Source: Euglena gracilis
Taxonomy: Eukaryota
Length of the DNA stretch: 64,000 nt
Direction of reading: 5' to 3'
Assembly: GCA_039621445.1 (NCBI GenBank)
Contig: CP154954.1
Location: forward strand, 47,905,847 to 47,969,846
Each line of letters begins with the position of its first letter. The first letter of the stretch is position 1. Under the pieces are notes generated by a model. That model was not told where the DNA came from, ran no database searches, and was given only the letters and a program-made list of their open reading frames with translations. This document shows, piece by piece, positions 5,831 to 56,600 of this stretch. A program made the position numbers and the translations under genes.

Positions 5831-5866
5831 AAAAAGAAACGGTTGGGTCGCGGTCGGCCGGCCCCA

Positions 5867-6000: not shown

Positions 6001-6013
6001 CCCATCTGAGCTT

Positions 6014-6245
6014 CAAATAACAAAATCCCTTCTGTGTGGGCAACATACTCGGGGGCTAAGTCGTTTTTGTGGCTCACTTTGGCATAGGCGGGGGGGCTCC
6101 GCCCCCCCCGCACCCCGCCCACAAATAAAAAAATCCCTTCCATGTTGGCAATATACTTAGAGGGCTAAGTCCTTTTTGTGCAAATTTTGACTTATATTGA
6201 GAATACAATGGGGAGAGGTGTTCTTTTGCCAAAAGTGGCCCAAAA
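6014..6245 (+). repeat. ~120-bp repeat family (CAAATAACAAAATCCCTTCT...)
   Basis: Near-identical to the tandem units at 11187-11642. Confidence 0.85.
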
Positions 6246-6999: not shown

Positions 7000-7305
7000 A
7001 GGTTGGGTCGCGGTCGGCCGCGGACGGCCGCGGCCCAACCAAAAAAAATTTTTGGTTGGGCCGCGGCATGCCGCGGCCCAACCAAATCGATTTTTTGGCC
7101 ATAAAACATTCGGTTGGTTGGGCCGCGGCATGCCGCGGCCGGCCGCGGCCCAACCAAAAAAAAAATTTGGTTGGGCCGCGGCATGCCGCGGCCCAACCAA
7201 TTTAAAATTTTGAAAGCCAAAATTCACCGTGGTTGGGCCGCGGCATGCCGCGGCCCAACCAAAATTCTGTTTTGGTTGGGCGACGGCCGGCCGCGGCCGG
7301 CCGCG
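7000..7305. repeat. Array of the same 30-bp palindrome (right arm)
   Basis: Multiple GGTTGGGCCGCGGCATGCCGCGGCCCAACC copies with AT-rich spacers. Confidence 0.9.
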
Positions 7306-13330: not shown

Positions 13331-16300
13331 TCAGCAGCAGAGCCGGCAGCCCTTGTGCTCGTGGACGACGGAGGCTGGCATGTGGCGCAGCACCGGCAGC
13401 ATGATGCCCAGGCCGTGGAGGAACAGCACCGCCGGGCCGGCGCGGCGCCTCCCGAACCATTGGTCCCCCCCACCCCCCCCCGGCGGGTGTGGGGTCCCGG
13501 AACCGGACCACCCTGGCGGCGAAACTGGGCAGGGTGGCCGATGGCGTCCGTTTTGAGTTTCCAGAAACGTGCATTCGACATCAGAAGCTCAGCATCGAAA
13601 GGGCAGAAAAAATACAAAAACAATTGGCATTGCAGAAAGAAATTACCTAAGTTGCCTTCGGCAGCCATTTCAAGTCGCTTGGGGGTGGGGAAGAGGTATG
13701 GGGTTACAAAGACACCATGGAAGGAATTCGTGGATTTCTGGTGCTATTGGCGTAAACCAAATGGCCCCGGGCCAAAGCCCCTGGCTGGACGACAACCAAA
13801 CCCACACATATACGTGTGTAGGTTTGCTCTCACTGAAATTGCACAACACAGCCTGAAGTGGGACGTGAGAGGCCGCTGGTGTCCCCTTTCCGGCTCCAGA
13901 TGGGGCGGCCTCCCAGGGCGGAGGCGCTGCCCCGCGCAGCACCGCGACGAGGGTGGCCCAGGCGGAGGCCGTCACCCCCGGCAGCAGGAACGCCGTGATG
14001 ACGAACGGTGGCCAAGGCCCTTGGTCCTCGGGTCCGGCGACCAGGTGGTGTGGCGTGCTGGTGTCAGGGATGGGCTGCTGGAGGACCGGGTGGGTTGCTG
14101 GTGACTGGAACTGGACGCGGCCCAGATGCCCCCCAGGGCGATTTTTAACCCCCCGGGAGGGGTCCATCTCAGTGGCTGGAAAATTTGGGCTGGCTGGAAA
14201 AAGGCTCCTGGCTGCCCCCCCCCCCCAGGCCCAGGGGTCGTACCAAAAAATCGAAATCGCAAAAATGTCCAGAAAATTGCCAATTAAGCAATTTTTTGTC
14301 CCCAAATTTGCCCTGGGCAGCCGTTTTCCGACCCATTTTCGACCCACCTTGGACCCATTTTTGCACACTGGAAGCCAAAAATCCGTTGCTGTCCAGCCGC
14401 CCAAAGGGCGAGGGAGGGGGGTCCAGGGCTGGGAAAAAAACTGCTGGTTGGCTGGACCCCCTGGCCCGGGGGGGTCAAATTTTCTGAAGCTACGCTCTGC
14501 CATAGGTTGCTATCGGTTTTTTCCCACCTCTCAGAACCGGCAGACAGAAAGCGGCACCAAACGCCTCAGAGCAGAAGGGTGGGCAGGCACGAGTAGAACA
14601 CGACGAAGTCCAGGATGAAGTGCAGCTTCCGCTTCGTCTCCCGCGAGGCGATGATGCCCAGCAGCAGCAGCAGCGACTGCAGGGGGCGCCACTCGGGTTG
14701 AGGGAAGGAGGGGAGGGGCGGGATGAGGTCACTGCAGGCTGCAGTTTTCAAAAATGCGCAAATCGGCGAAAAAAGCTTAAATGCTTAGAAATTGCTTAGA
14801 TGCGCAGCCTAAGTGGGATGGAGGTCGGTACGGGCTGCATGGCGCCTCCAGGAGAGTGCCTCCTCAGCCCTAACCACCCCTGAGGAGGGAGGGGTCACCA
14901 ATAGCCCCACTCCGGGGTCCAAACTTTGACGTGAGCTGTCGGAGCAAAGATTGGGTGCTTATCCATCCTGCGGCCCGGCCTGGCCATGCTGAGGGTCCAC
15001 AACGTGATGAACAGCACGGACAGGAGGAGGGGGAAGAGCAGGACGAAGAGCGCGTACGCCAGCACGGTCAGCACCAGCACGCGGCGCATGCGGTTGGCGG
15101 GCACGAGGGCCGCCAGCCGGAGGTGGGCCTCCTGGGAGCGGAGGAAGTCTGGCGGCAGCCCTCGTCCTCTGCACCCCCGCCCCTCCGGTCTCCACGGCAA
15201 ATGCAAACCATATGGGGGGATTGTTGGGGTTCCTAAACTGTTAAAAAAAAAAATCCTTGGGCCCTAAAACATTATGATCCAAAAAACACAGCCAGGCTGC
15301 CCAACTTAACACCTGTTTCGGCCTGGTTTCAGCCATTTTTGCATCATTCAAAGCTGGAAAATCTGCTGCAAGAGAGGGCAGTTGGACAGAAACTAAAACT
15401 CCTTGATGGGGGGGGGGGTACAGGGCTGGAAAAATTCTTCTGGCTGGCTGGCAGGATTCCCCCAGGGTTCCAGCTTCAGTCTTTTAGCCTTTTGAGAGGA
15501 AATCTTGGTGGACGAAAGAACCCCGCACCAAGTTCATAAGGGTCTCAGGAATCCCCCTCGCCAATCCTTGTGGCTGGACAAAGGGCTGGGCACCATGTAC
15601 TCGTTGACCTCCTCCACAAACGTGACCACCAGGGCGTTGGAAATGGTGGACAGCGTGTCCGGGGACGACCCGATTAGCACATACGACAGCCAGAACACTC
15701 CCGGCCAGGGGGGCGGGGGCGTTGGCCACGGCGCCAAAGAGGGGTGGGGTCCCCTGCCGCATGGCCGGGCCAAGAGCTACCCCCCACGCGTTCGCCCCGC
15801 CCGCAAAGCGGCATTTTCCGGGAAGGCCGGAGACTCCCCCCCCCTCTGGGCCTAGGCCCATGGCATACTGGAACGCGGCCAGGGACGTGGTGATGAGCAG
15901 GGGCGAAGCCGCGACGAACCGCGCCCGCCACCCCTTCTCCTCCGTCTGCCCCGGCGCCAGCCGAGGCCGCAGGTTGGGGGGGAGAGGGTTTGGCCCCAGC
16001 ACACAGTCCGGCGCAATGCAGGGCCGGGGCTGCGCACGCCGCAGGCCAGCAGGACGTCCACGACGCGGAACAGGATGGAGGCGTGGGCGATGTCCCCCGT
16101 GAGCAGCCGCAGGAACACCACGAGGAGCACCACCACCCTCTGGCCGGGCGGGGCCAGGGGAGGGAGCCCGGTTTCTGGGGACGATGACTTCAGGGGTTCG
16201 AAAAGCGTCGGTGGCGACCAGGAAATGACTTTTCACATCAAACAGGTTTGCCAACAGGACCGACCTGCCTGGAATACAAGCTGAAAATGGACGGGGGAAT

Positions 16301-17210
16301 CAGAGTTTTTTTTGCTGGTTGAAACTGACCAACCCGGGGGGGGGGTCTCGGAGTGCCCTGGAATGCCTGGGCAGGCGGCAGGCATAACCCCCCTCGGGGG
16401 GTCTGGTTGTGGGCCAAAACGTGCCCAGAAATGGGCTTTTCTGGGCTTCTGGCGACTTCGGCGCCGGAAGTGCCTTGGCCGAGTGCCCAGGCACTTTTGG
16501 CCATGTGCCCAACCCCGGGGGATTGGATCTGGGTGTCTTGGAGTGCCTGCCCAGGCAGGCTCCCCCCCCCCCCCCAGGGTGGGGTCGGCACCGCCTTAAA
16601 TTTCAGTCTGTTCCAGGGGGCTACAGGCGGTTGAAAAAACAAAAAGAACAAACAGGTGGTTGCGTTGGAAAATGACTATGGGAAGCCAGGGAGGTAGACA
16701 GTCCCGGCTCATGTGGACAGCGCACGCCCGCCCGACCCACCCTTGGCAAGGGGCCACACCCGGGGCGGGTCACCACCACCACCTCGCCGGCGTTGTCCAC
16801 CGCCGCGTCGCGCAGGGCGACGGAGACGATGACGAGCAGGCCGAGCTGCATGCACATCGTCAGCGTGATGGCGAGGAAGTACAGCAGGAAGTACAGCGTG
16901 CTGGGGGACTCCCACCGGCTCTCTGCAGCAGGCTGGGGCACCCAACACTGGTCTGAGCAGGGGGGGGGAGGGCTTAAAAAAACCCCCCCACTCAGGTATG
17001 CCGAGGGACGTGTACAAATCCTGGCCCAGGTCCAGCCGGATTTGGAGATTTGTGGTGTGACAGAAAAATGAAAAGTTAAGGGGGACCATAGACGGGACAG
17101 CCCGATGACTGGCCCTTCTCTGGCATCATGAGGTACTCGATGTACTTCTTCAGGAACTGCCCGCAGGTGTCATGCGGCAAATGGTGGCATAGCTCGTCCG
17201 TGACGCAGGG
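13331..17210 (-). CDS. Multi-pass membrane protein, paralog A (multi-exon; 5' end not defined)
   Basis: Hydrophobic exons: ...GQFLKKYIEYLM; LYFLLYFLAITLTMCMQLGLLVIVSVAL; VVVLLVVFLRLLTGDIAHASILFRVVDVLL; ...FQYAMGLG|VFWLSYVLIGSSPDTLSTISNALVVTFVEEVNEYMV|DFLRSQE...; ...FYSCLPTLL|FVITAFLL...VAVLRG|PAVLFLHGLGIMLPVLRHMP...CRLCC*. Four junctions checked join in frame with 3+5 stem geometry. Confidence 0.85.
14007..14572 (-). other. Nonconventional intron with CTG/TGG stem closure
   Basis: GCT-CTGAGGCGTTTGGT ... ACCAAGGGCCTTGG-CCACC. In-frame join PTLL|FVIT. Confidence 0.65.
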
Positions 17211-25938: not shown

Positions 25939-26262
25939 CAGGGGGGGGGAAATGCAACTTGGCCCTTCAAATTATGCAAGTTAAAAAATGCGCGCACCTG
26001 CAACTTGCATGAAAACCTTGAGAAAAAGCTGGAATATGACAGAGCTTTGCTGCCTAAAATCAAAAAAATTTTCCAGGGCAAAATATTTTACGCAAAAAAG
26101 CGCAAAAAAAATGCAAAAAAATCCAAACATACGGCAACCAACTACAAATTTTTTTTCCAGGGCAAAATATTTTATGCAAAAAAAATGCAAAAAAATGCAA
26201 ATTTCGGGAAAACCTGATTATGCAAAAAATGCAAATTATGCAAGTTGCATTCCCCCCCCCTG
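25939..26262. mobile_element. CAGGG-TIR MITE with 7-bp TSD
   Basis: TIR CAG(G)nAAATGCAACTTG / CAAGTTGCATT(C)nTG. CTTGCAC on both sides. Internal duplicated TTCCAGGGCAAAATATTTTA segment. Confidence 0.8.
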
Positions 26263-27934: not shown

Positions 27935-28047
<113 letters not shown>

Positions 28048-28332
28048 CACTCAGGCAGTGGAAGGTGAAGGTGGTGCAGCGTCTCCAGGGTAACAGGACG
28101 CTGCAGGAGGAAGGGCAGGGTCGATGGCACCCACGATGAAAACGTCTCCCAGACCCCATCGCTCCGCATATGCTCAGTGGGCTAGGCCAGGGGAGGGCTG
28201 CGAGGTAGGATGGGACCACCATTGCACCTTGAAAGGAAAACATTCAACGGCACCGAAATCTGTGTCTGTGTGTTGTGTGTGCTGTGTGATGGGCGTGCTG
28301 GGTGTGCGTGTGTGCGCGCGCGCATGTGCATG

Positions 28333-28444
<112 letters not shown>

Positions 28445-30669
28445 AGGTGGGTAGGTGCATGTGTGGGTGGGTGGGTGGGTGGGTGGGTGTGTGGGGGCAG
28501 GTGTGGGTGTGTGGGTGTGGGTGGCGGATGGGTGGGGGTGTGGGGAGGTGGAATGCGCTTACAGGCACACAGCATTAACCATCCCAGTCAACCTCAGTTG
28601 GACCACAAGAAAAACTCCAAAGAAAGCCACTGCTGGACACACCCACAAGAGAAGGGATGGACACATATGCTAAACATTTTCATTCAAATTTTTGGAGTGT
28701 TTCTTCGCATTTAGTTCTAAGTAGACCCCTGAGGATCATTCCACAGGCTCGGCTTACCAGCATCGAATCGTTGGCGAACCAAAAGAGTGGCGGGACCACC
28801 CAAGCGCAATTGTGCAATGGCTGCCTCTCGATACAAAAGGCAATGCAGCAGGTGAGAGTGTGAGAAGAGGGCGAGGCTGGATCAGGGACGGTGCATGTGT
28901 CGGAGGCGGACGGCGGTCAGCGGGCCAGCGGCTGCCGCTCCTGCCCCCACGGCTGCGGCTCCACCTCCAGCTGAGGCAGAGAGGGGAGGGCGACGGCGGG
29001 GGCCAAGCACCTATGGCCAGAATCCCAGATTCAGCCACGGCAAGACACCCCCAGTCACGCCCAAACTACGCTCCGGGCCCGTCAAATCACCAAAGGAGGC
29101 TTACGAAACAATAAATAACTCAAAAAAATTTGTTTGGGTGCGCTTTTTGACCTTGTTATGTTCTGGGGGTATGGTTTGGGAGCTGGTTGAGGGTGAAGAT
29201 GCCTGTGAAAAGTTGTCGAAACAATCCTCTGATCCTGAATTTTTTGGACACAGTTCAAAACTGCAATTATGGCGTTTCAAAACTGTTATATTCTGCAATT
29301 TATCCACATTTAAAAGGTTCTCTCAGCCATCGTCAGTTCGAGGTTAAAGAGGTTTGGACCCCCCCAGCTCCCATTATATCCCAGGGGCTTGATAGGGGGG
29401 TTTCTGCAACATCGTCGTCCTAGGAGAAGGACGCTAGTATGAGTTCCAAAAGCCCAGGAGAGTGACATACATCCCAGTCAAATGTCCATTTTTTATAATC
29501 CGGCACCCCCCTCCCAAACCAAATAATTCCCCCCAAATAAAACCCACCAAATGCAAAAATCCAAGAATCACTCGCCTCACCCCAAATTTGACCCCACGCA
29601 ACCCGTAAAAACGACTGAAATCCAAAGATGAGACCGCTGATACTTTAGCATATTTGAGGCCCAGGAGTCATGTGGAATGTCTAGTTGGAGAGCAATCTCA
29701 CAATTAATGAAGTACTGGGAAATTGGGCGTTTGGGAACCCTGAAAACTCTTGGGGTCAAAGGTCGGTCAAAAAGACTCGAAAAATAGGATCGTTAGGATC
29801 GTCACCCCCCCCCCCTGGAGATTCCCACCAACCGACCCAAAGGTCCGACCCAGATCACAGTTTGGGGAGAGTTAAATCCCGTTTTATATTAACTGCGTTA
29901 ATCTGGTTCATTTTGTGTCACTTTGGGCTCATTTCATTCAGAATTGGTCAATTGGGCTATTTTTATGGATTATTCTGGGCCGCTTTTGGGCATTTTCCAA
30001 TTTTTCATTTCATTTACACCCCGAATTTTTTTCGCATAATCCTGCATAATGACGGGCTTTTGGGTCAATTTTGACCTTGAAAATTGTGCAGGATTATGCG
30101 GGATAATGCGGGCCAAAAATATTCCTACCATAATAATGCTCAATGGAAAATATGATTCAAGAATGACAAAACCTCTATTTTCTGAAACAAAAAACAGCTG
30201 CTTCTCAGGGCCTGTTCTTTTTGCATTCTCACAAAAAAAGCAAGTTATACGGGATTATGCGAGTCTGCAATTTCCCCTCGCCTGCCAGTGCGTAAATGCA
30301 ACTGGGTGAACCCGGTCACCATCTTCGCACGGTGAATCCAGCAAGGACATGAAGCACACTGCAAAGCTGGCCGGCCATCAAATGTTCGAACTTCATGTGT
30401 TCGATTTCCATCTTCATCCATCTTTTTTGTGCACATGGGTCTGGGGAGGCCTCAGCAAACCGATACCTTTGGGGCCTCGTTTACACCTCAGGGACCAAGC
30501 AAAGCAGCAGCCATGACAAGGAGGAAAAGAACGCAGGTCAAGTTTGGGGGCTAACTTCGAGGGGTATGTGCAAGGAGGAGAGTGGCAGCGAGTGGTCCTT
30601 GGGCAACGGGGGCACACAAATTCATCTTTCATTTCTGAGGCATGCATTGGCGGACCTGCCGGCCACACA

Positions 30670-32295
30670 CCTCGGGCTCCTGCTTCTCCAGGAGTCCCCA
30701 CACGAACCGGAGGAGACTGATGGCCAGCTTGATGCCGCACATCACGAGGTCCAGCAGCAGCGTGAAGAGGATGAAGTAGGCCACCATCCGCCAGATACCG
30801 TCTGTGCGAGGCGGAGAGAATAGTGCAGGGAATGAGAACCTCTCACATACAGAGAAAATGGCATAGCAGAGGTGATCGCACCCGTCCATCCGAAGAATGG
30901 ACTGATGGTGACAAAATTGGCTCTGTACACAGATTGGAAAAATATATGCATTTTGCAAATATTTTAAACATATATAAAAACATTGCATACATATAAAAAA
31001 CAATATATGCATATTATTTTATCGTTGACCCTATTTAATTTATTGAATTTACTAACATTGCACAAGTATTTGTATTTTTATAAATAGTTCAAAAATAAAT
31101 TCCTGCAGGGACTGGCAAACTCATTTTATGGCCAATATCTTGAGTTTGACGCAGATAACCAAATAATGACTGCCCTCAAGCCATAAAATAAACCCTGAGT
31201 TCTTAAATTATCATTTAATTGTTTACTCCACGTTCCTTTCAAAAACTTATACCCACCACTGCAACCAAAAGACAGCATTATTGGCACACATTATTGGCAA
31301 ACAGGCTTTTTTGACCCCCATTTGTCTGGCCTCAGAAGCATAACGTGGACAAGACCAAGCCCACACGAGGCGTCGCACGAACGTGCAGGCCGGAGGGCGG
31401 CACACACTGGGGCTGCCCATGTCCACGTCCGGCAGCCACGCCGGCAGCCACGACGTCCCGTCCTTGATCTTGACGCAGTAGTGGCTGTTCGCTGCGACAC
31501 AGCACTCCCGCTGCTTCGGGTGGCACGTCCATGTGGCCTTGAAATCTGGAGGGGGGCAGCGCAACTGAGCGCCTTCCGGACGTTGCTGGCCGGGGAATCC
31601 ACATATGGCAAGCAAAAAAAAAGGTTTGAAAATGAGAGACGACACAAAGGTACCATCCAAGCATGAAATAGAAGATGCACATACCCCACATCAGCAGAGG
31701 CTTTGAGGGGTCTGTTTGAGTTTTCGGTCCCATTGTATTAATGGGGAAGACATGAAGATGCACAAAAAAGCTATCGCTCGTCTCCCTCGTGCTGGGCTTT
31801 TGAAACCTCAACGACATCGAGTGTTGTCCCCTCCCATCCAAGAAAAAAACTGCACGTTCCAGTTTTCAAAACCTCCCAAAACCCTCCATCATTTTTTTTC
31901 TGCCGGTGCTGGCGGGGGGGGGTGGCCGTGCGCCACACTTTCGTTGGCGTGGTCCGGGCACGTCAGCAGCTGCAGCCCGCCGCCCACCGGGCCCGGGGGG
32001 AGGCCGAGGCACTTCTGGAACAGCTTGAACCAGGCTGTTTTTTTACCAACCCGGGGGGGGGGGGCGGTTCCGGAGTGCCTATGAGTGCCTGCCCAGACAG
32101 GCACCCCCCCCCCCGGGGTGGGGTCGGCACCCGAGTAAAATACGGCCTGGCTTGAACGCGCCGATGGTCGGGGAGTAATAGAACTGCTGGGCGGCGGTCT
32201 TGCTGCAGGACTTCGGGGCGACGTTGACGCGGTTCGGCAGGGCCTCCAGGCAGGCGGTGGAGGTGCCCTTCAGGTACTGCAGCAGGTACGGCCCT
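30670..32295 (-). CDS. Core exons of a membrane protein with a Cys-rich domain (gene extends on both sides)
   Basis: PYLLQYLKGTSTACLEALPNRVNVAPKSCSKTAAQQFYYSPTIGAFK|LFQKCLG...LLTCPDHANESVAH|DFKATWTCHPKQRECCVAANSHYCVKIKD|GIWRMVAYFILFTLLLDLVMCGIKLAISLLRFVWGLLEKQEPE. The last exon contains a TM-like stretch. Confidence 0.75.
32031..32149. mobile_element. 119-bp MITE with perfect 8-bp TSD, forming nonconventional intron 32026-32152
   Basis: TIR CAGGCTGTTTTTTTAC / GTAAAATACGGCCTG. GCTTGAAC at 32023-32030 and 32150-32157. Removal of the element plus 8 nt restores GAFK|LFQK. Confidence 0.9.
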
Positions 32296-33059
32296 GGGTT
32301 TGGAGGGGGGGGGGGGGCGTGGGGCGGTGGGGCCGGATTGTGTGCAGGGCCCACGGCCATTGTCCATTACTGATGGTCGGTGTGAGCGAGAGGACACAAT
32401 GCGAGGTGGGCGGGTGGGCGGGGCGAAGCCATAGCGGTTGCTGAGTCGGGGGCGGTGTTCACCTTTTGTCCAGGCTGCCGCTGTACCGTGCCGTGACCCC
32501 ACGGCACCGTGGGGGGGGGGCAGGCACACCCTGGTCGGAGCGCGGGGTGGGGCTCGGCTGCGCCGCTGCCAGATCACACAGCAGCAGGGATGGATGGGAA
32601 GCCTTGGGGGGGGGGTCGGACCCCCCCTGCCTCGAAACTGGGGGGGGGGGGGGGAAAATTTTTCGATTTCATGGACGGGCAAAGGGCCGGAAATCGGGTC
32701 AAAATCGGCCAAAAATCCCTGATTTTTCTTTGAAAATCGATCCAAAATTGCTCATTTTGAAATTTTTTGAACATTTATTTGGAAGAAAACACCAACACAT
32801 CAAAAAATGGGCAATATGTCCAAAAGTCAGCAAAAGGAGTGTTTTTGCTCAAGAAAATTTTCTGCTATTTTTGGCACCTGTCAAGCAGGTCCTGGGGGGT
32901 CCAGACGCCCCCTCCCAACATCTGGGGGGGGGGGTGGTCCGGACCAGGTTTTGAATAGTGCTGAGCTCTTGATAAGCGCTCACCCACCCCTTCATTGACA
33001 CCCCCATATAAACCGGCGCACTCCATGGAGCTCTGTTGACTGAAATGCAAAGGTTTTGT

Positions 33060-35395
33060 GCCCGAAACAGGGCGCCGGGGGGTGAAGAAACACTCATTTT
33101 TGGCTCAAAATACACCTTTTCCGGGTCTGGATAGCCCAAAAACAGCGCTTTGGGCGAAAAAATTTTTTTCGATTGTTTCGACTTTTTTTTACCCAAAAAT
33201 GACCGGAAGTGAGTGGGCGCTGGCCGGTCGAAAAACGCTCATTTTTCGGCCCAAAAACAGTTTTTCTGGGTCCGGGAGGCCCAAAAACATCGTTTCGGGC
33301 AAAAAAAATTTTCGACTTTTTTCGACTTTTGACCCGAAAATGTCCCACAATCAATGGGTTGGCAGCCCAAAACGGGGCACTGGCGGGTGGGTCGAAAAAC
33401 GCTCATTTTCAGCCCAGAAACAGTTTTTCTGGGTGCAGGAGGCCAAAAGACATCGTTTTGGGCCAAAAAAAAAGTTCGATTTTTTTCGACTTTTTTGACC
33501 CGAAATGACCCACAGTCAATAGGTTGGCGGCCCAAAACGGGGCGCTGGCGGGTGGGTCGAAAAACGCCCATTTTCGGCCCAAAAACAATTTTTCTGGGTT
33601 CGGGAGGCCCAAAAACATCGTTTCGGGCAAAAATGGTCATGATGGGCATCATGGGTCATGATGGCCATCGTGGGTCATGATGGCCATCATCGGTCATGAT
33701 GGCCATCATCGGTCATGATGGGCCTCATGGGTCATGATGGGCCTCATGGGTCATGATGGGCATCATGGGTCATGATGGGCATCATGGGTCATGATGGCCA
33801 TCGTGGGGTATGATGGCCATCATGGGTCATGATGGCCATCATGGGTCATGATGTGCCTCATGGGTCATGATGGGCCTCATGGGTCATGATGGGCCTCATG
33901 GGTCATGATGGCCATCATGGGTCATGCTGGGCATCATGGGTCATGCTGGCCATCATGGGTCATGCTGGCCATCATGGGTCATGATGGGCATCATGGGTCA
34001 TGATGGCCATCGTGGGTCATGATGGCCATCGTGGGTCATGATGGCCATCATGGGTCATGATGGCCATCATGGGTCATGCTGGCCATCATTGGTCATGCTG
34101 GCCATCATGGGTCATGATGGGAATCAAAACCCATGATTGGCATCATGGGTCATGATGCGCATCATGGGTCATGATGCGCATCATGGCCATCACAGGTCAT
34201 GATAGCCATAATGGTCGAAAAACGCCCATTTTCGGCTCGAAAACCCTTTTTCCGGGTCTGGAGAAGCATGGTTTTGGGGGGGAAATTTTTTCGATATTTT
34301 TCGCCTTTTTTGGCCGAAAACGGCTAAGCCCACCAGTGGAAAAAGTGTACAAAATGGCCAAAATCGGCCAAAAAAACGGCCATATCTCGGGCTACGCGAA
34401 CAGTTGCGGGGAAATCAAAATACCAGTAGATGGAGTGTTCCAAGGGCTTCAAATTAGGTCTCCGGACATTTCCTTTGATTTTGCTTCATTTGCAGAAAAT
34501 TTGAAAATATTGATTTTTGGCCGATTTTTGTCGGACAGTGGGAAAAGTGTACAAAATTGCCCGTTGGCCGAAAACGGACATATCTCGGGCCAGGCGGGGA
34601 GTTGCGGAGAAGTTGAAATACCAGCAGATGGGACGTTCCAAGGGCTTCAAATTAGGCCTCCGGACATTTCCTTTGACTTGGCTTCATTTTGGAGATATTT
34701 TGAAAATTGACATTTTTTTGGCCGAAATGGCAGAGTCCAAAAGGGGGCCAAAAAAACATCGTTTTGGGCCAAAAAAAAATGTTTTTCGATTTTTTTCGAT
34801 TTTATTGACCCGGTTTTGACCCAAAGTCAATGGGTTGGAGGCCCAAAACGGGGCGCCGGCGGGTCGAAAAACGCTCATTTTCGACTCAAAAACAGTTTTT
34901 CGGGTCCGGGAAGCATAAAAACATTGTTTTGGGCAAATTTTTTCTCGATTTCTTTCGATTTTTTTCGACTTTTTTGGCCGAAAAGTGTCAGACAGCGGAA
35001 AAAGTGTACAAAATGGCCCAAATTGGCCGAAAAAGGCCATAGCTCGGGCTAGGCGGGGAGTTGCGGGGAAATCAAAATACTCGCAGATGGGGCATTCCAA
35101 GGGCTTCAATTTAGGTCTCGGACATTTCCTTTGATTTTAGGTCATTTTCGATAAATTTTGAAAACATCGATTTTTTGACCCCCACCCCCCGAAAATGTCG
35201 GACAGTGGGAAAAGTGAACAAAACGGCCATCTGGGCAGAAAAAAGGCCGTATCTCGGGCGCGGAAATCAAAATACCAATCGATGGGGTGTTCCAAGGGCT
35301 TCAAATTAGGTCTCTGCACATTTCCTTTAATTTTGCTTCACTTTGGAGATATTATGAAAATCGACAGTTTTCGGCCGAAATGGCAGAGTCCAAAG
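33060..35395 (+). repeat. Compound satellite-like block of two interleaved ~165-200-bp units
   Basis: Unit A (GTCGAAAAACGCTCATTTTCGGCCCAAAAACAG...) at ~33065, 33215, 33370, 33535, 34215 and 34845. Unit B (AAAAGTGTACAAAAT...TTCCAAGGGCTTCAAATTAGG...) at ~34340, 34540, 35000 and 35210. Confidence 0.85.
33635..34205. repeat. 19-bp minisatellite (GGTCATGATGGCCATCATG)n, about 30 copies
   Basis: Direct inspection. The unit contains the 16-bp palindrome CATGATGGCCATCATG. Confidence 0.95.
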
Positions 35396-36999
35396 GGCTT
35401 ATCCAGGGGGGGGGGGCGATCCTACCCAGTTTAGACCCCCCCTCGACCCTCCCTCCCCCCGGGTCGGGGCCACCTGGAGAACGGACGGATTATCACCATG
35501 ATCCCGGCCCGGTTCCCGGAATTTTTTTTCCAGTCGCGAGCGATTTGATTTCTAGTTCCGAATCACCCGGGGTTGACCCCCAACTCCCCGCCAGGCCCGA
35601 GTTATTCATGCGCGAAGGGGGTTTCGCCAGGGGAAAGCTTCGCTCTTACCCATAAAGGGATAAGAGCTCAGCGACCCCCCCCCTACCACCTACCTCAATA
35701 CCGAAGGGCTTCTCATCCATCCCTGCACAGCAGGGCGAGGAGGAGGGCGAGGGCCGGGGATGCGGCAAGCATGGGGGGGCGTGGGGCCTGCGGAGAGGTT
35801 GTTGGGCAGCCCGAACGCAGGGATGGCCTCGGGCACGGATGGGGTCAGACCGCTGTTGACCAACTGCGCCGTTCGACTTCCAGAGGGCCAGCCAGGCAGC
35901 CCCGGGAAGCACGGGACACAACGAGGGGCAGCACCGGTGCAGGCGTGGCGGACCGATTTCCACGCGAGGGCATCCCCCAATCCATTGTCGGCAACGTTGA
36001 AAGGTGATGCAAAGAGGAATGCACCGAATCTACAACGGAGACCTGTTTTCGGTGGAATTTCAACAAATTTTTTTTCTTGGATTTCGTTTTGTGTGTTTCT
36101 CAAGCCGTGACGATGGCTAATCATTTTCCCGCATACCTGGGATGATGGGGTTCCATCAGGTGGCGAGCGCCATGGGGTAAGCACACAAATCCGAAGCAAA
36201 AAAAGGAAAAAGCCACTGTAAGCAAGGTAGTGCACATGGCGAAATCAAAAACCACACCACAAAAAAACTGGTTCGGCAGATAATTTGCACGTCCCACACT
36301 GCTTTTCACCCACAGAATGCAAAAAAAGCACCTCTCAGAAATCTATCAGGGTGGGCTCAAATTAGCCTCGATTTTAATTACGCCTTCAATTTCAAACATC
36401 ATTACTCATCCTGAAGCCAGCGGAACAGACACTAATACATGTGCCAGAAATGAAAACAAGCAGAAATTCAGTGTCATGCCAAGGAAATAAATGCAAGGAA
36501 AATGTGTCAAAATGGTTTTTGTCCTTTCCGAACAAAATCTGCAAATAGCGAGCACTAAACGCAGGAATTACGAAGATGTTTTCCTGTTGTTTCTTTGACT
36601 GCCTTAAAAAAGGATGGGGAATTCCAGATGATCCTTCAATGCAGCGGTTTCATTTCATAGCCCAAGTAATGAACCACACTCTCTTTTTCTTTACTTGGAT
36701 TCATTTAATGAATTCGGTTCAATCAAGGAGAAAATGTGACAAAATATCCACGGCATGTCCCAGTTGTCAGTGCCAGTTGCCAGTTGTCAGTTGTCAGTGC
36801 CCAGTCCCCTGATGTCCCCCTGTTCAAGTTCCCATCCACCCTGGGTATCCCTAGGTATCTCCCCACTGCATCAATCCCAGGGGCAGTGCTCAGAGGAATG
36901 GTCAAGTGAGGAGAGGTGGATGAGGGCTGAAAAGGTAATCAGACGGAGGTTGGCGAGGGAGGCAGAGCGGTAAATGCACAGAAGTGAGAGTGAGTCAGT

Positions 37000-39900
37000 G
37001 GTCAATGTGGGCTGGTCGGCGACATTGAGGACGAGTGGGGGGGAAAGCTTCCAGGGGCTGCAGTCACCGCCAGTGGTAGCGTTGAAGCGCAGAGCGACGA
37101 AGAAGGCAGAGGCCGCCGCACTGGTATTAAGCTTACGGCCCGCCTTTGCACACGCCAACTCCATGTGCCAAGTGTGCATGTGGGGACCCTGGAGCCCCCC
37201 CCCCCCCCCATGGTTAAACACAAAATGCGGGCAAACTTTTGGGGGTGGGGGCAATTCACTTGGTACGACTTTGGTGTTGATGTGGAAAATAAGCAAATGA
37301 AACTGAAAAATGTGGTGACAAGGTTGCAAAGTTAAACATAGAGAGCTGGGTGAATTGGTACATGTGGAGGACAACTGCCGGGGCAAGCACCACGGCAGGG
37401 GGGGGGGGGCATATTGGTTAATCCATACATCGATACTTATATCCACCCACCCATTTATCCATCGGCACACCCATCCATTCCACCCAGCAATCAATTCCAT
37501 ATACGCTCGTGCACAAACTTGCATTGAACATAAAAAAAAATATAAAAAATATGTGTATACATAGATCGACAAAAAATATACATTTTTGGTCAACTTTTAG
37601 GGCTACCTTGGTTTGATACTAAGACTAGACTACTTAGTTTGATACTAAGCCTAGTATATATCTGTGGGGGGGGTCTGGCTGGACGCCGGCATCTTTTTTT
37701 TTGTGGCTGGAAAAGGTGCTGGCAACCTGGACCCCCCCTGGAGGGGAGGGGTGGGGTTTGGCTCAAAGAATTCCCTGAAGAGCAATCGTTGTCCACCGGT
37801 TTTGACGCCTCCGGAAGGATTTCACAAGCCAGCACTCCATCCCACAGGCAGCCTCTGGGCTGGGGGGCAGGCAGCATCACTGGAGGGCACTGGAAGCCAA
37901 AGGAGGGACGACAGGGCAGTGGGGGGCAGGCTTCTTTTTCATACCCGGGCTGCCGGCCCAGGGCCCAGACCCAGACCCGGACCCGGACGCCCCCCCCCCA
38001 GGGGGTCTTCCAAGTTAAGGAGAAGCCTGGGGGGGGAGCTGAAGGGTTTGCGACCAGTGAGACGCTGGGGGCGGGGACGCCCTCCCGTGGCAGCCAACCT
38101 TGCGTTTTCGTCGAGGGTGGCCGTCCGGTGGCCCACGGAGGCCCGTTAGGTTGGAAAACCTGAATCAGAAGTCGACCTTTCTGGGCAAAAAATGGGTTGG
38201 AAGCCTTTCACTTAAACAAACTCCCTATCCCCTAGCCATACCATGCATTTTACGGTGGGGAAAGGATCTCGATGCTTCACGCCCAGGGACACTCCCCAGC
38301 CAGGCAGGCTGTCACACCCCACACCGAAGCAAAAAAAAAAAAAACAACAAAAAGGAGGCGGTCCGAAGAAGCAGCAAATTCATGTGGGTCCAGTTAAAAG
38401 TCATTCACCCTTGGGGATGCTCCCGCACCGCGTGGATCAGTGTGTTCTGTCTGCACCACGTGTGGCGCCGGGTGCACCGCGTGGCACCACATGACAAGAA
38501 TCAGGTACAAACTGAAAATGACTCCTCGAGAGAGAAACACCTGCGAAAACACCCAGCGATTCCAAAAATGGAACAACAGAACAATTTGGGTGACATTGGT
38601 CGTTTTTAGCTGGTTTCAGCCCACATTTCAACTGGTTTTGCCACCACATCTCAATGATTCTGTTCAAACGGCTATTGCATCTCTGCAAGTGGCACAAAAT
38701 GGTCAAAAGTGGCCAAAAATGGGCACCAAAAAATGCAAAAAAAAGCCAGAAATTGATGAAAAAAATTGCATACAAATGGCCAAACGTGGTCTAAATTGCT
38801 AGATGCAGCCCAAAATGGCTGACAGTGGCCAAAAGTAGTCCAAAATGGCCAAACAATGGAGCCCAACAAAAAAAGGAAGGGAAACTGACTAAAAGTGAGG
38901 TGCTGATGAAATAATATGTGAAATTGCACAATTGGAAATGATTTTTCTCACACAATGCATGCGGTGTGCCACGGGTGCACGCGGTGCCGAGATGTGTGAG
39001 AGCGTCCCCCTTACCCCCTGCGAGCTGTTCATTTGAAGAAAGCTAATCAGCTCTTTGCAGTGCCCGACCCCATTGTCTTGGAAGGGCATGCCCTGTGGTA
39101 CTATTTTCACTCAGCCCAGCAGGGCAGTGGGGCGCGGGCAGGGGCGGCGGCAGAGGGTCGCCGGGGTCGTGCGGGGGGCCCGCGGCGGAACATCGAAAGG
39201 GCCGGGCCACGGCTGGCGGTTGGGGCCCACAGCACCGAAAGCCCCGGCGGAGCGCTGCCGGTGGCTCGGTTCGGGGCCACGACCCCCCCCCAGGTGTCAT
39301 TGGTCAAACGGAAACCAGTCCAAAAAGCCGAGAACTTATGCCCGGGGAATGGGGGGAGGGAGGGGCAAAGATCATGCTGTGTGCCTGCACCTGAGGCATG
39401 TGTATGTGTTGATGTGCGCAGGCACAATCGTGTAAATTGGGAAACCCCAGCAACAAAAAAAGATGGCAGCACAGACGATCATGGGACCAAATGCCAGAAA
39501 ACCGCATTCATCGAGACGCCACCCCAAGCCGAGGGAGGCATGCGCATCTTGGGGAAGGCCGGGAAGAGCCGGGGGCGCCCCTGCCGAATATACAACTGTT
39601 AGTTCCAGTCAAATGGGGGCAACCGTGGGAGCCGCATAGGTGGGAGACAGGGGCCCGCTCCACCGTGGGGGGGAGGAGGAGTGCGGCGAGTCGAGGCAGA
39701 GGAGGGGGTCAGCGCTGGCAGTGGAGCGGTGGCCTGGGCCCAGGGCCGCTGCCGGGGCTCCAAGCCGGGGGGCGAGGGCAGGGCTGTGTGGGAACGCCTG
39801 GTGGGGGGAGGCAGCCCCTCAGCAGGATTTGATTGAGGGAAGAGGGGAAGAATGGCCGGGGGGGGGGATGTGCCGGTCCGGCTCGAAAAATATGCGCAAA

Positions 39901-41230
39901 AAAATGATAAAATGCACATAAATGTGGTGAAAAGAAGGAAATGACGAAAAAAATGTGCCAGAAAGAAACAAATGCGCTGGAAAAGTATTGGAAAAAAAAT
40001 GTGCAAAAAAATGTGATAAAATGCACAAAAATGCACATTTTTGGAAAAACTGCGCAAAAAAAAGGCGCAAAAAAATACAAAAAGACATCCCCCCTGCACT
40101 GCCTCGAAATTCTGGCAAGGCTGCTCCTGCTGGCGGTGGTGGTAGAGGAGCCCCCCTCTCTACCCCTTCCCTTCTTTACATCGAACCCAGGGGGGGGGAC
40201 CCGCCAGGGTAATTAGACAGTTCAACATAGGAAAAATTCCTTCGGCACCGAAGGGACCTTCAACCTGAAGAACGGCGGCTCGGGCACACCGGGAAGGGGG
40301 CCGACGCCGGCTGGGGCTGGCCATCCCGGTTGGCCCTGGGCACGGGAAGGGGGGCCATCCGGGCGGAAGGGAAGGGAAGGGAAGGCGGAGCGAGGGGAGG
40401 CCTGGGGCAAGCACCCATGGTCAGCCAGAATCCCAGGCGCAGTCACGCCTGGTCACGCCCGGTCACGGCCAGTCGCGCTCCGTCATTCCATGGGTGCTTG
40501 GCTCGGGAGGCCGAGGAAGGCGACAGCGAGAGAATGAGACGGCAGCGCGGGCTCTGCCGGCCGCAGGCGTGCTTTGAAGCCCCCCCCTGCGTTCAGCGGC
40601 CTTGAAACCCAGTGGCCAGACTTCCCAAAGCCCACTGGGACAGGGACCAGAAGGCCGTCGCATCCTATTTTCCCAAACCCAAACGGTTGGGGGGCATACT
40701 CTGGGGGATACATCATTCTGGTGCTAACCTCACTTTCAACCTGCCTCAAATCATATTTTGAAACCATTTCGAGCGTTCATAGGAAAACTCTGCAAAATTT
40801 CCCAGAATTTTTTTTGCACTTTGCAATTGAAAGTTTATGGGCTGATCCCACTGGACAAAGCGATACCCAACGTTTCATTTCAGTCGACCAAAAAGGTGGT
40901 CCGGCAACCTGAATAATGGTCCTCTGCTCTGAGCCCTGAGCCAGGTGCCAAAAAGGTGCCGGCTGGCAGGACAACAGACAGACGGGGGGGGGGGTAGAAT
41001 CCCATGTGGCTCACAAGATCGGAAATACCTTTGGGCGGCCAGGGTTGGGGGGGAAAGACGCCTGGCCAGCGGTCAGCGCCTCCACGGCCCAAAGTCACCA
41101 AAGAGGGGGGAGGAGGTGTGAGGGCGCAGACCGGGGCGCAGGGATGGGGGGCTTGGGATGTGGCCTCAAACACGGCTTGCCGCAATAGATCTGGCGAGGC
41201 AGATGACCCCGGCAGCCGGACCTCCAAGCC
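37000..41230 (-). CDS. Probable scattered exons of a hypothetical protein (frames unresolved)
   Basis: GC-rich islands between repeats, e.g. LEVRLPGSSASPDLLRQAVFEAT (~41160-41230) and SAAASAFFVALRFNATTGG (~37065-37125). Junctions not verified. Confidence 0.3.
37927..38029. mobile_element. Short MITE, CAGGCT-TIR family
   Basis: CAGGCTTCTTTTT / AAGGAGAAGCCTG. Flanked by poly-G, so the TSD is uninformative. Confidence 0.55.
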
Positions 41231-42423: not shown

Positions 42424-44608
42424 GTGCACATGTGCAATCCATGCGAAAGGTGTGTGTGGTAAGAGTGCCACTATCATAAGGCGTCAGGCGGGCGGGAGCA
42501 GTGGGATCCTCGGCGAAAGCGCAGGGGCTCACGCGGACGATGAGGCACCTGGATTTGGACCAGAGACAGCTCAGTGGGTGCAACACTCCCTGTGGTTTGC
42601 AGCACTCCCTGTGGTAGCACGGATAATGCTGGATCTAGATGCCTCATGCTGAGCGCCAATGTACGGCCATCGGCCGTCGGGCCAGAGTAGGCTGACATCA
42701 ACAGCTTGGGGGTGTGCTGTGATTGTTGTTTGTTTTTGAAATTGACAGTTCATTTATGAGTTGGTGAGCAGGGCGGTCCGAAAGGAAAAAAAAATCTCTC
42801 CGCTGCCCAGCACACAGGAAAATGCGCAAAGAAATTTGGCATTCTTCGGTGACAACAGGTCGACATCAGGGGAAAAAAACTGAATCTTGGCATCCTTGGA
42901 CCATCGCCCATCCACCCAAATCATCAAAAAATGTGCTTTTTGGACTTTTTAGTTTGGGACGTTCAGGTCCAGTTTGCCCGAAAGGGGGGCTGTCCGTAAG
43001 AAAATAAAAAAAATACTTTCCTGTCCCTTAAGGACCGCCCTGTTGGTGAACAGAATTTGTGGCTGGGGGTTGGAGGCTTTTGTGCTGATGGCCACTGCGA
43101 AATATGGAAACGCCATGGGTGGGTCCATGCTGTGGCCAATCACCTGCAAACCCCACGCGATATCTTGAGAATATCCGACTGGAATAGCACCTGAACAGAT
43201 ATAAATAGCACATAAACCGACATAGGAAACCTGCACCTCCTCACAATTACACCCCCATCCTTCAGCTGGGGGTGAAAACAACGTGGGCCTTCGTTGTCAA
43301 AACACGCAAATCAAACTCAAAACCACTCAAAAACTCAAAAAAAAGGTTGAATTGTAAATTCCTCCAGGGGCTCCCAAGGGTGAACACCTCTTTGTGGGAG
43401 AGGAATAAATCGTACATCCTCTGGGGAGAATTATTCATAATGGCATCCTTGTGGAACTTTTCCGGGAACCCACTGAGCCTCGGTTCAAGAAAACACCAAC
43501 TTATGAAGACTGTTTTATCATCAAACCGGATCCCATAAAATTTGGGGTTAAAAAACCAAAAACACTTTAAAAATGCCACTTTTTGGCCAACCTTGACCAG
43601 TCAAAAATGCACAAAATGCACAAAAAAAATGCGCATTTTTCCAAAAAAAAATGCGCAAAAAATGTGCAGAATCTGACAGGAAGAGCGCAAGTGTCATGAA
43701 AATGGAAAACAGCAACAAATTTACAAGAATTATATGGTACTATGACGAAAATCCAAGCTTAAGAAGTCAAAAATTTTCAAAAATGCAAAAATGCAAAATT
43801 ATGAAATTTTGTCCAAAATGCACAAAAAAAAGATAAATGACAAAAAAAACACCAAAATGGAAAAAATGTGCTGAAAAAATTCAAGGCAAAAAAAAATGCG
43901 ATAGATTGCACATGATTGGAAATTGCACACAAACGAGAAAACGTTAAATGTCACATCCGAAAATGCACAAAACGCCCAACCCTTGGCTCTCAATTTCTGA
44001 AAAACTTCGGCACTCGCGCCGAAAAGTTTTTTGGTCCAGCGTGGCCAGCTTCGCTAGGCTGGCCCCAACTGTGTTTGGGATCAGCAACCTGGCTGGGAGC
44101 TGCTCGCTGATAAAAACGTGCTGGCTGACTGGACCCCTCCTCTGTGGGTTGGGTCTCCGCCGGCTTAAGGAATCCCTGCAAAACAGTTCAATAACCTGTG
44201 AAAAGATGTGGGGGAAAAAACCCACTGAGAAAGAATTCATTTATCCCAATGTTCTCCGTCATCAAACACGACACAAACAAACAGGCAAGGTTCATTTGCA
44301 GGGAATCTCAGCAAGCCAGAAAAACACATATCTGACCACCAAAATGTCATTGCTGGTGTGACGGCCGGCAAACGGACACCCACGGCATATCGGCGCTGGG
44401 GATTCGGTTCGCTGGGTCAGTGGCCATATATGCAGCGAGCACTGCAGTTCAGGGTCACAGACAGAGTTGAAAGTTTGGGGGGGGGGGGGCACTGGCAGCG
44501 GGAGGGTGTGAGCAGTGGCTAGGTTGGTGGAGGGGTGTGGGTGGTTGTCTGGTTGTGGGTGTGGGCATGGCTGCAGATGTGGGGGGTGATTTTACTGGAA
44601 TCCTGCAA

Positions 44609-53679: not shown

Positions 53680-56600
53680 CACGGGACCAGTGCACTGGCC
53701 GCGGGGCCCCTCTCCGCGGGGAGGGCATGGCTCTGGGCGTGGGACTGGACAACCGCCTCCTTACTGATCCACCCACATCCCATGAAAAGGCAGCCGCGGG
53801 CGACAGGCTGCGAGACGGGAGGGGGGTGGGGACAGGCGAGGGGGTTGGATGGATGGGGGGAGGGGTTCAAGGCTTGGGGGGGGGGGGTTGCTGTGTCGCG
53901 AGAAAGCCGCCACCCTAAGCAGACCAAAGCAGGCAGGCACCCCCTGGGGGGGCACAGGGTTGTATGAATCTCCGAGGGGGGGACCCCCCCACCACCTTAC
54001 CCCCTAGGGGGGGGGGGTGACCCCCCCACCACTACCTCATGTCTGCGGAGCCTCCCATACAACCCTGGGGTGGCAAAAAGGAGCTGGGTCGAGCCGTTCC
54101 CGGCGCGTATCGCTGCTGTCCCCGAGAGCCGCGCGCGTTTGTTGTGTGAGCTTTGACGCGGAGAGAGTTACCGCCTTTGGCACCCTTCCCACCTGTCCAC
54201 TGCCAGTGGGGTTTAGTTCCGATGAACCCTCTGAAGAAGGAATTATTGACACGTATCGCCCAACCCATCCTTCTGGCGCTGGGGGTGCCCTTCTGTTTGG
54301 ACCCCATTTTGCTGATATCCATTGATTTCCTTTAGAAACCCCATGAAATGGGGGGGCGCGTTTGTAGTGGACCGCCGCCTTTGGCAGCCGGGGATTCGCT
54401 GTTATTTGGACCGCTGTAGCGACCCCGCACTTCTATTGGGGGGGGGCGAGTTTAGGGCTTCCACCGAGCCCCCCCCCCCCTGCCTGAGGGGGGTTAAGGG
54501 GACCCAACCTCATGAGAAGTGTTTCAAAATTCGATGCCCTGTCTATTGAGGTGAAATTATCCAGCATGGCTTCTGGATAATTTTGGTCGGTTTGGGGGGG
54601 GGTCGGTTTTGGGTTCCAGCTCGGAGTGCCCAGGCAAACCTCCCATGTTTGGACCCCGGCGCCTTCGGTTCTGAAGGAGGGGGTGGGACAATCAAAAGCG
54701 CTAAACCAGATCTACAAACAAAACCAGATCTACTGGGGTCGAAAATGCCTTCACCTCGCCCGAGCTGAGACCTAAACAGGTGCCACAAAATCGAAGAACA
54801 AAAATTCCCCCAAAAAACAGCCAATTATGCAAAAAAAAGTCAATTGACCCAAACGTTTGCCCTGGCCAGCCCATTTCCGACTTATTTCGCCAATTTTGGC
54901 CCATTTCTGCACCCCCGAAAGCGAAAAATTTGCTACCATTCAGCTGCCCTTCGGGCGGCTGCAAAATAATCAGAACTCGTCGGGGGAGAGGAGTATAGGG
55001 CTGGAAAATGGCTGCTGGCTGGAAAACGGCTGACCGTGGAGGTTCATGACTCTCGGTATGGACGCGAAGGTTGAATCCTTTTGAATCAGACCCAATCTAC
55101 ACACCAGACTGCAATACCCGAAATAACCCTCCCGGCACCTGACAAGGACGTTCGGTGAGCATCCCGAGAAATTCCTGCGGTGCCAGGTCGGACAGTGGAC
55201 CCGGGCTGTCCTGGGTTAGAACTGCGACCAGTCCTTGGGCGTGGCAGCTCACTGGGGGGCGGCATCCAATCAGTTAGTCCCCATCCCCGACCCAGTCCAT
55301 ACATCTCTTTAAGGACCCTGGGGGGGCGGGGTTGCTGGGCTAGGGCTAGAAATTTGGGCTAGCTAGAAATTTGGGCTGGCTAGCCCGCCCCCCCCCGGGG
55401 GGGGGGGGGGCGCTGGACCCCGGCTGGACCCGAACCGGGGCGAGCTGGACTGAAATCGGAAAAATGCCCAAAAATGACCTGCAGAACACAGTTTTGAAAA
55501 AATGATGCATCTGAAACCCCCCAAAAATGCCCCAAACGCCCCCCAAACCCCATTTTTGGCCACTTTTGAACACATTTTTTCAAAAATTTTCGGCGCTTCG
55601 CGCCGAAAAATTTTGGGCTGGACCCCCAAAAAGGGGGCTGGCTAGCTGGGCTAGCAGCACCCCCCCCCCAGGGGGGGTGCTGCTGCGGCTGGGCTGGGCC
55701 CAAATCGGGGCTGGCTGCAGCAGCCCCCCCGGGGGGGGGGGGGTTCGCAAAACCTTAGAGAGATGTATGACCCAGTCCCTGCCGTTGCCCACTGCCATCA
55801 AAAAGAAACCAAGCAGAAAACCCTCTTCCATTGCTTTTCTCATCTTGAATGTGACTCTTGGGTATGGCAGCAACGCAACACGGCGTTGGAGGCTCGTCAT
55901 ATCGCACGTCTTCGCAATCACACGCCGCATGCCTTCCGGCAACAAAGGTGGAATCTCAACAATAGTCGACGTTGGGTGAATGGACAGGCAGCGCGGAATG
56001 GCTGGGGAAAGGCAACAACGTGACTTGCGGGTACCAAATGGCTGATGGTGAGTATCAGCATTGGAGGCTTGTTCCTTTTTCATATTTTGAGGTAATTTTT
56101 TTAAAAAAATCTTTCCATGAGTTCAGGGGGTTCCCTGGATGGATGCCTTCGCACAAATGCCTTTGTGGCCACTATTTGTAGCTACTTCGGTGCACAATGG
56201 CTGCTTTGCATCGGTGCGGGGCACAGGGCTGCAAAATCACTCATGAGTCCAGCCACCGCGTAGCCAGCCAGATTGGCGGAAGGCACCGGCCAAAGGGTGG
56301 GACACAGCAAGGCGGGGGGGGGGGGGGGGGGCAAAAGGGCATCCGGAAACCACAGAGGGCGGGCACACAACCAGGGGGGGCGGTGGGAGTGGGACGCCTC
56401 GGCAGGCCGAACTCCACCGCCCCGGGAGGGGGGGAGAGAGGGGGGGAGGGACGCACGACCGGAGGATGGAGGGCAGGCACGGCAGGCGGGGGGCGTCCTG
56501 CAGAGAGAATGGACGCGCCGGGGGGGGGGCAAGAGGAGGAGGCCGGGGCACGGGGCGGAGGGCCAGGCCTCCGGTTGCCCACCCACAGGGGGAGAGGGGA

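Follow-up and report, generated by a model that had tools for sequence, protein, structure and literature searches.

Within a 64,000-nt stretch of Euglena gracilis DNA (GenBank assembly GCA_039621445.1, contig CP154954.1, positions 47,905,847 to 47,969,846 of the forward strand; this whole stretch is called the window below, and coordinates count from its first letter) lies a minus-strand gene that has, besides four ordinary GT-AG introns, two introns without conventional borders. One of these, 127 nt long, is made up of a 119-nt element that interrupts a coding exon, together with 8 nt of flanking sequence, and is the main subject here; the other, intron 1, appears to be a second, larger element of the same anatomy. 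The encoded protein looks by eye like a small cysteine-containing protein that has a signal peptide and, at its C-terminus, a membrane segment, and matches no family in Pfam; an Rfam search of 31000-33300 gave no match at E values up to 1. Three of the four GT-AG introns are seen as RNA joints, while the fourth, intron 5, was located from its sequence, from protein mapping and from a loose read end, its joint being absent among the 15 joints listed. The features of the gene and of related elements in the window are collected in Table 1.

Table 1. Coordinates of the host gene, its two nonconventional introns and related elements in the window
Feature	Position	Strand	Evidence
Non-coding element with CAG...CTG termini, very high-copy family	32031..32149		sequence, DNA contig depth
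8-nt repeat, copy lying upstream in mRNA sense, read as target-site duplication	32150..32157	-	exact repeat
Downstream (mRNA sense) copy of the 8-nt repeat	32023..32030	-	exact repeat
Left terminal inverted-repeat arm	32030..32043		inverted-repeat listing, folds
Right terminal inverted-repeat arm	32137..32150		inverted-repeat listing, folds
127-nt nonconventional intron, placed by the code: AGC + CAG...CTG + GTTCA, next exon A	32026..32152	-	code (PMC12501133) and RNA joint
Repeat-filled 3141-nt element, forms intron 1	32585..35725		terminal inverted repeat, DNA depth, diverging contigs
Upstream copy of the intron-1 8-nt repeat	35726..35733	-	slide of exactly 8
Downstream copy of the intron-1 8-nt repeat	32577..32584	-	slide of exactly 8
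Intron 1, placed by the code: GTG + CAG...CTG + CTGCT, next exon G	32580..35728	-	code (PMC12501133) and X15 contig
Exon 1, coding part, start codon 35772-35770, signal-peptide-like MLAASPALALLLALLC	35729..35772	-	alignment to P0001
GT-AG intron 2	32293..32528	-	joint skips 236; ends CT..AC on + strand
Exon 3 (...PYLLQYLKG...SPTIGAFK)	32153..32292	-	translation, RNA joints, protein mapping
Exon 4 (LFQKCLGLPPGP...)	31939..32025	-	RNA joints, protein mapping
GT-AG intron 4	31546..31938	-	joint skips 393
GT-AG intron 5	30802..31407	-	sequence, protein mapping, loose end of 3 X24 reads at 31408
GT-AG intron 6	28971..30670	-	joint skips 1700
Longer degenerate relative of the 119-nt element, common core and CTG end	16277..16610		sequence comparison
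274-nt CAGGG...CCCTG element, 11-nt perfect terminal inverted repeat, 7/8 flank repeat (TTGGTGAG/TTGGTGAA), candidate only	42769..43042		scan
113-nt CAGGG...CCCTG hairpin, 12-nt perfect terminal inverted repeat, 7/8 repeat, G-rich flanks, upstream of the WD40 start	53955..54067		scan

The 119-nt element starts with CAG (32031-32033), ends with CTG (32147-32149), and is flanked on its two sides by the perfect direct repeat GCTTGAAC, which is exactly 8 nt long and extends no further in either direction. Its terminal inverted arms, of 14 nt each, are 86% complementary; the outermost five bases, CAGGC/GCCTG, pair perfectly, and beyond them 8 of 10 do. It is thus short, non-coding and bounded by a terminal inverted repeat (TIR), as a MITE (short for miniature inverted-repeat transposable element) is, though the TIR is weak for a MITE. 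The element interrupts the minus-strand exon in such a way that the residues FK appear in both of the flanking open reading frame (ORF) translations (...SPTIGAFK and FKLFQKCLG...). What is removed amounts to 127 nt, and 127 mod 3 is 1; with the insert retained a stop is reached 26 codons past the junction, and the spliced frame is open.

Public reads were placed on 28540-33220, from two RNA runs available as raw reads (X21 and X24), one RNA run available as assembled contigs (X15) and one DNA run (X1). A joint from 32022 to 32150, which skips exactly 127 nt with 8 ambiguous letters, occurs in all three RNA runs and not in the DNA run. It is carried by six reads with six different starts in X21, by two reads in X24 and by an X15 contig at depth 212. 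The insertion itself is present in DNA, where an X1 contig covering 32120-32453 carries the junction between element and exon. Coverage is thin, and the samples behind the RNA runs are not those behind the DNA run. At position 32135 every read (10 of 10 in X21 and 10 of 10 in X24) has C, the letter found in the rest of the element's family, and the local copy has G, so that no read can be assigned to a retained local copy. The public runs also differ from the window at many intronic positions within 28540-32300, an example being a 689-nt DNA contig at 31154-31839 with 21 other letters and 7 gaps; since these diverged runs still carry the insertion, it predates the divergence of that strain or allele.

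The code for euglenid nonconventional introns, 5'-N3CDG-/-CH'GN5-6-3' followed by a purine (R) at the start of the exon, was set by knock-in mutagenesis (Nomura et al. 2025, PMC12501133). Nine boundaries of the 127-nt intron are compatible with the mRNA. None of the nine is GT-AG, GC-AG or AT-AC, and one, at shift 5, fits the code in its form with a 5-nt 3' spacer: AGC-CAG...CTG-GTTCA, with A as the first base of the next exon. The RNA of the intron folds into a long hairpin with the CAG/CTG pair at its base (-80.2 kcal/mol, z -3.8), so that terminal base pairing joins both intron ends. No back-joint of a circular intron is found among the listed joints, where it would in any case be ambiguous inside the 8-nt repeat. 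The absence of GT-AG borders, CAG at +4 to +6 and CTG at -8 to -6, the terminal helix, the exon-start purine and the removal alongside conventional introns of the same gene are all as described for euglenid nonconventional introns (Nomura et al. 2025; Milanowski et al. 2014, 2016). The 127-nt intron is a standard member of that class, with no defining difference from the published descriptions; what it adds to them is the high-copy repeat unit and the intact 8-nt duplication. The exact 3- and 5-nt placement of its cuts is presumptive, being taken from the published code (PMC12501133).

Orthologous proteins run through the junction without a gap, with AFKL in both P0001 (87% identity, ...GAFKLFQK...) and P0002 (63%, ...AAFKLGKK...). 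The original prediction for this DNA, made from its letters alone, had described a 119-bp CAG...CTG element with a perfect 8-bp flanking repeat inside a coding region, with FK codons duplicated in the two flanking ORFs and an insert of 127 nt that is not a multiple of 3, and had proposed that removal of the element with one repeat copy restores the frame. The anatomy is as it was described. The RNA joint, the open frame and the gapless orthologues agree with the proposed removal, and the RNA check that it called for gave the 127-nt skip in three of three RNA runs with no possible GT-AG boundary.

The same DNA run bears on how often the element occurs. Summed word depth in the DNA contigs is 580,643 for the bin 31994-32150 and 55-581 for the adjacent bins, a ratio of about 5000, where summed contig depth is a sign of heavy repetition and is not a copy number. 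Thirty-three DNA contigs carry C at 32135 in place of the window's G. Reads from other copies diverge right past 32149 into mixed, unrelated flanks (five reads in X21, three in X24), and one X15 contig diverges at about 32029, at the opposite end of the element. Two relatives likewise stop at the same CTG and diverge beyond it. One is the longer, degenerate relative in the window (Table 1). The other, which corresponds to the 3' half of the 119-nt element, is on environmental contig L001 (1560-1700, minus strand), the one contig obtained in a metagenome scan with a 20-nt core motif; its flanks were unusable, and its presence means that related elements exist in uncultured euglenid-like DNA. 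These observations indicate that the 119-nt element is one of a very high-copy family, the members of which terminate at CAG and CTG.

The way in which the copies end also bears on the route by which they were distributed. Nonconventional introns are excised as full-length circles, according to PMC11282704 and PMC12501133, and an excised circle might be reverse-spliced or reverse-transcribed into new sites. Copies made at the RNA level would, however, bring the donor's 3 + 5 nt along with them and would not duplicate the new target, whereas the element here is flanked by a perfect duplication of local sequence, and other copies depart from it at the CTG end. We consider spread of this kind very improbable.

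Of particular importance is that the same arrangement recurs in intron 1. This intron, of 3149 nt, contains a 3141-nt element whose termini, CAGGGATGGATG...CATCCATCCCTG, form a 12-nt perfect TIR with 18 of 19 positions matching; the element is flanked by a perfect 8-nt repeat, CTGCTGTG in mRNA sense, giving a slide of exactly 8. Again none of the nine possible boundaries is conventional and one fits the code (GTG-CAG...CTG-CTGCT, then G; PMC12501133). GT-AG splicing is accordingly rejected at both nonconventional introns of the gene, at 0 of 9 slide positions each. An X15 contig joins 32584 to 35734, and its continuation is letter for letter that of 35734-35763, a sequence unique in the window, which places exon 1 there with its start codon at 35772. 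Divergence just before 32585 is seen in twelve DNA contigs, and inside the element the depth reaches 5-9 x 10^5. That high-depth interior lies within 32622-33092 and 33226-34186, and the element also holds tandem repeats, one of 165 nt in 2.5 copies and one in which a 19-nt unit occurs 29 times. It has no long clean ORF, the ORFs present looking like translated repeats. At the intron-1 junction P0001 has two extra residues (..ALLCLCDV.. vs ..ALLC/DL.., the slash marking the junction), a 6-nt difference located where the 8-nt repeat lies, which may reflect either an excision footprint or an ordinary indel.

As a second like case in the same gene, intron 1 has strengthened the view that both inserts began as mobile elements. 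It also bears on the suggestion that the 119-nt insert is simply an old nonconventional intron with a coincidental repeat at its boundary. Short boundary repeats are indeed common, 84.4% of Euglena introns being "slidable" (PMC12501133), but chance would give a perfect 8-nt match in a fixed register about once per 65,000 trials, and here there are two in one gene. Moreover, the one listed difference between the local copy and the family majority is that at 32135, with 26 further differences across the placed stretch given without details. Coincidence is hardly credible.

The specificity of the 8-nt length was examined across the window by collecting CAG...CTG pairs 40-12,000 nt apart in which the first five bases are paired and at least 8 of the first 10 are paired. 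This gave 2207 candidates, whose flanks were counted with at most one mismatch in registers 5-12, the expectation being taken from permutation. Only two of the 2207 have a perfect 8-nt flank repeat, and both are the introns of the host gene. Flank identity is in excess at register 8 only, with 9 observed and 2.21 expected, a count reached in 0 of 1000 permutations. The neighbouring registers show no excess: 52 observed and 47.1 expected at register 5, 18 and 15.7 at register 6, 4 and 5.5 (5.53) at register 7, 2 and 0.9 at register 9, and none at registers 10, 11 and 12, where 0.30, 0.17 and 0.07 were expected. With low-complexity flanks excluded, register 8 holds 4 against 0.82 expected, which 21 of 2000 permutations reach.

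The reading that we favour, and to which we would give a probability of roughly 0.8, is that a MITE-like, high-copy element with its 8-bp duplication was inserted in a Euglena coding exon and is removed without a scar as a nonconventional intron. A non-autonomous, MITE-like element would have entered the coding sequence of a gene for a small cysteine-rich membrane protein, probably through the action of a transposase whose 8-bp staggered cuts would have duplicated 8 bp of the target. In the pre-mRNA the TIR of the element (CAG.../...CTG) would then form the stem needed by euglenid nonconventional splicing. Cutting 3 nt ahead of the CAG and 5 nt past the CTG would take out the element and a further 8 nt, equal to one copy of the repeat, and would leave the mRNA as it was before the insertion.

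Several points weigh against this reading, some at the locus and some elsewhere in the window. RNA does not reveal where the cuts are made, as they fall inside the 8-nt repeat, and since the RNA and DNA runs differ in sample, an expressed allele free of the insertion is formally possible. The removal of intron 1 is seen in one assembled X15 contig and in the continuity of the orthologous protein with its signal peptide, with no raw reads. The 119-nt element has a short TIR, of 5 perfect bp followed by 8/10. No other full-length copy was seen together with its two flanks, so that elements of this window are the only ones with a documented 8-bp duplication, and the relative at 16277-16610 has no flanking repeat. 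The original prediction had also suggested looking for empty sites and for a transposase: no empty-site joint occurs in the single DNA run, X1, which carries the insertion, and no transposase family came up in Pfam for the ORFs scanned between 35850 and 40450, which were 10 of the 21 that reach 110 aa. It had further expected, for nonconventional introns genome-wide, a peak of flank identity at exactly 8 nt; among the CAG...CTG pairs of the 64-kb window such a peak exists but is weak without the triggering locus (3 against 0.82 expected with low-complexity flanks excluded, P about 0.05 by a Poisson estimate, suggestive only). Lastly, in the neighbouring WD40 gene (53783-45328, mapped with a 100% identical protein in 12 exons), 6 of the 11 introns are GT-AG, and the 5 that are not lack an intact 8-nt repeat, their boundary repeats being 3 (or 0), 2, 1, 2 and 5 nt. 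Three of those five have the 3/5 geometry, with CAG/CTG, CGG/CCG and a CAT/ATG variant, and their register-8 identity of 1/8, 4/8 and 4/8 is at chance level.

The negative results for a transposase (10 of 21 ORFs) and for an empty site (one DNA run) would suit a different origin, in which a double-strand break was repaired with captured filler DNA and the 8-nt repeat is a repair signature, as has been suggested in print for the gapC intron of E. agilis (PMC4770533). Such an origin does not sit well with an insert that forms one whole unit of a very high-copy family, all with their ends at the same CAG/CTG bases, with two unrelated elements in one gene that both have exactly 8 nt, or with an excess specific to register 8. 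We regard break repair as improbable at this locus.

The WD40 introns bring up a broader alternative, which leaves the identity of the locus undisputed and differs on which feature adapted to which. The splicing geometry may have come first, unrelated to transposition, with an RNA enzyme that cuts any CAG/CTG stem at fixed offsets and with 8-bp-duplicating elements merely being tolerated in exons, so that 3 + 5 = 8 is the outcome of a survivorship filter. The code holds for synthetic introns as well as at a non-native site, and its 3' spacer tolerates 5-6 nt (PMC12501133); the five WD40 introns are without the 8-nt repeat, and one of them has the same 3/5 geometry with CAT/ATG. On the other side, the register-8 excess includes elements not known to lie in exons (42769-43042 and 35893-40404), which suggests that the 8 bp belongs to the elements as such. 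We take this alternative to be a real possibility, though one that we lean against. The CAT/ATG case, WD40 intron 11 (45422-45695, minus strand), has 3-nt and 5-nt spacers, an exon-start purine and a 5-nt boundary repeat, and its motif is unlike the published CDG/CH'G (PMC12501133). Altogether an intact 8-nt repeat is present in 2 of the 7 documented non-GT-AG introns of the window, a share that would be expected if the intronic halves of an old duplication decay, and that agrees equally well with other origins.

If the insertion reading is extended beyond the locus, the 3-nt and 5-nt offsets of nonconventional introns would mirror the 8-bp duplication of one CAG-ended transposon superfamily, most of these introns would be aged insertions, and the splicing pathway would erase such elements from RNA throughout the genome, so that exons could be colonised without a scar in either orientation. 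We put this forward tentatively, at somewhat short of even odds. The rule itself, that the sum of the spacers equals the length of the duplication, is a good hypothesis and one that is simple to check. The original prediction had held that it would work at any site. The exon-start purine of the published code (PMC12501133) requires a purine at position 6 of the duplication on the transcribed strand, so that the claim goes too far and is limited to sites meeting this rule. It had also offered the rule as an explanation of the asymmetric geometry. That accounts for the sum of 8 and leaves the split into 3 and 5 unaccounted for. The split may come from a 2-nt-overhang stagger: were the helix to continue through the spacers, +1 would face -3 and the excised hairpin would have a 2-nt 3' overhang, and a sum of 8 with a 2-nt stagger would give 3 and 5 uniquely.

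The origin of nonconventional introns has been open since the 1990s, and is still called unclear in the discussion of Nomura et al. (PMC12501133). A MITE origin was proposed in 2014 (Milanowski, PMC3935182), in an article according to which no transposable elements had been identified in euglenids at that time. In 2016 a strain-specific, newly gained nonconventional intron with 8-nt direct repeats was described in E. agilis gapC, and break repair was given as its origin (PMC4770533). In a review of 2024 the CAG/CTG stem goes under the name of TIR, and the repeats at the boundaries are termed target-site duplication-like (PMC11282704). The locus is thus a well-documented instance of a kind already hypothesised, since a MITE origin, the wording of TIR and target-site duplication and one 8-nt repeat are already in print. 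The introns discussed in the MITE-origin papers (PMC3935182, PMC11282704) have inverted-repeat ends and boundary direct repeats as those here do, and are species- or strain-specific; those papers argue from intron ends only, in contrast to the present case, where the family is repeated and its ends coincide with the intron stem. In a literature search that covered the text of openly accessible articles, we found neither an explicit statement that 3 + 5 equals an 8-bp duplication, which is implicit in the legend to Fig. 3D of PMC11282704, nor a repeat family whose units are nonconventional introns. What the locus supplies is the missing piece of the MITE hypothesis, namely two introns in one gene that are high-copy units with intact 8-nt duplications and a single code-fitting boundary each, and it lends direct support to transposon beginnings for the unusual introns of Euglena. 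If the rule is general, it would explain how 72% of a genome's introns can be nonconventional.

Introner elements, such as IE1 of Micromonas pusilla (PMC11282704), are similar in being non-autonomous TIR units in exons that are removed as introns, with the duplication helping to define the excision. They differ in using the spliceosome, with GT/GC-AG borders supplied by the element or by a co-opted 3-nt duplication (PMC11282704), whereas here 0 of 9 borders are conventional, the code is structure-based and the duplication has 8 nt. Membership among the spliceosomal Introners was rejected, no GT/GC-AG border being possible.

An 8-bp duplication combined with ends that start with CA points to hAT-like or P-like elements, and the hAT end consensus is pyrimidine-A-purine-N-G. 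The elements described here share with hAT transposons the 8-bp target duplication and the TIRs; the consensus is matched by the intron-1 element and by both candidates, those at 42769 and 53955, and misfits the fifth base of the 119-nt element. Merlin elements with 8-bp duplications are also reported from E. gracilis, but Merlin is described as having ends that start with GG, together with duplications of 8-9 bp (PMC8101967); membership in Merlin was rejected on the CA termini, the duplication length fitting.

Among the further products of the scan, the two candidates in Table 1 have flank repeats of 7/8, as compared with the perfect 8 nt at the two elements of the host gene. Candidate elements A-D are not put forward as introns, there being no convincing coding frame in their flanks. 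A register-7 excess seen in a scan limited to 1500 nt or less (4 against 1.06) was gone in the 12-kb scan (4 against 5.53), and a first scan for N8-CAG..CTG-N8, which gave 6 against 2.47 expected, was set aside with homopolymer flanks in 4 of the 6. A naive scan for a TIR plus a repeat, with a 64-trinucleotide control, was uninformative, being swamped by the arrays at 5400-7300 and 33600-34200. The first of these regions consists of dense, palindromic, GC-rich arrays of GCCGCGGC-type units and produces many false TIR-plus-repeat matches.

Two CAGGGGGGGGG...CCCTG elements, at 25939-26262 and 11875-13144, have perfect 7-nt flank repeats; in the former, counting the C of CAG lengthens the repeat to 8 nt. 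At 55289-55778 there is a 470-nt segment with a perfect 10-nt TIR and a perfect 10-nt direct repeat (GACCCAGTCC), which resembles a further transposon-like insertion, one whose duplication is of another length. Just downstream of the last exon of the host gene, within 27935-28523, are a (CA)56 and a (TG)130 microsatellite.

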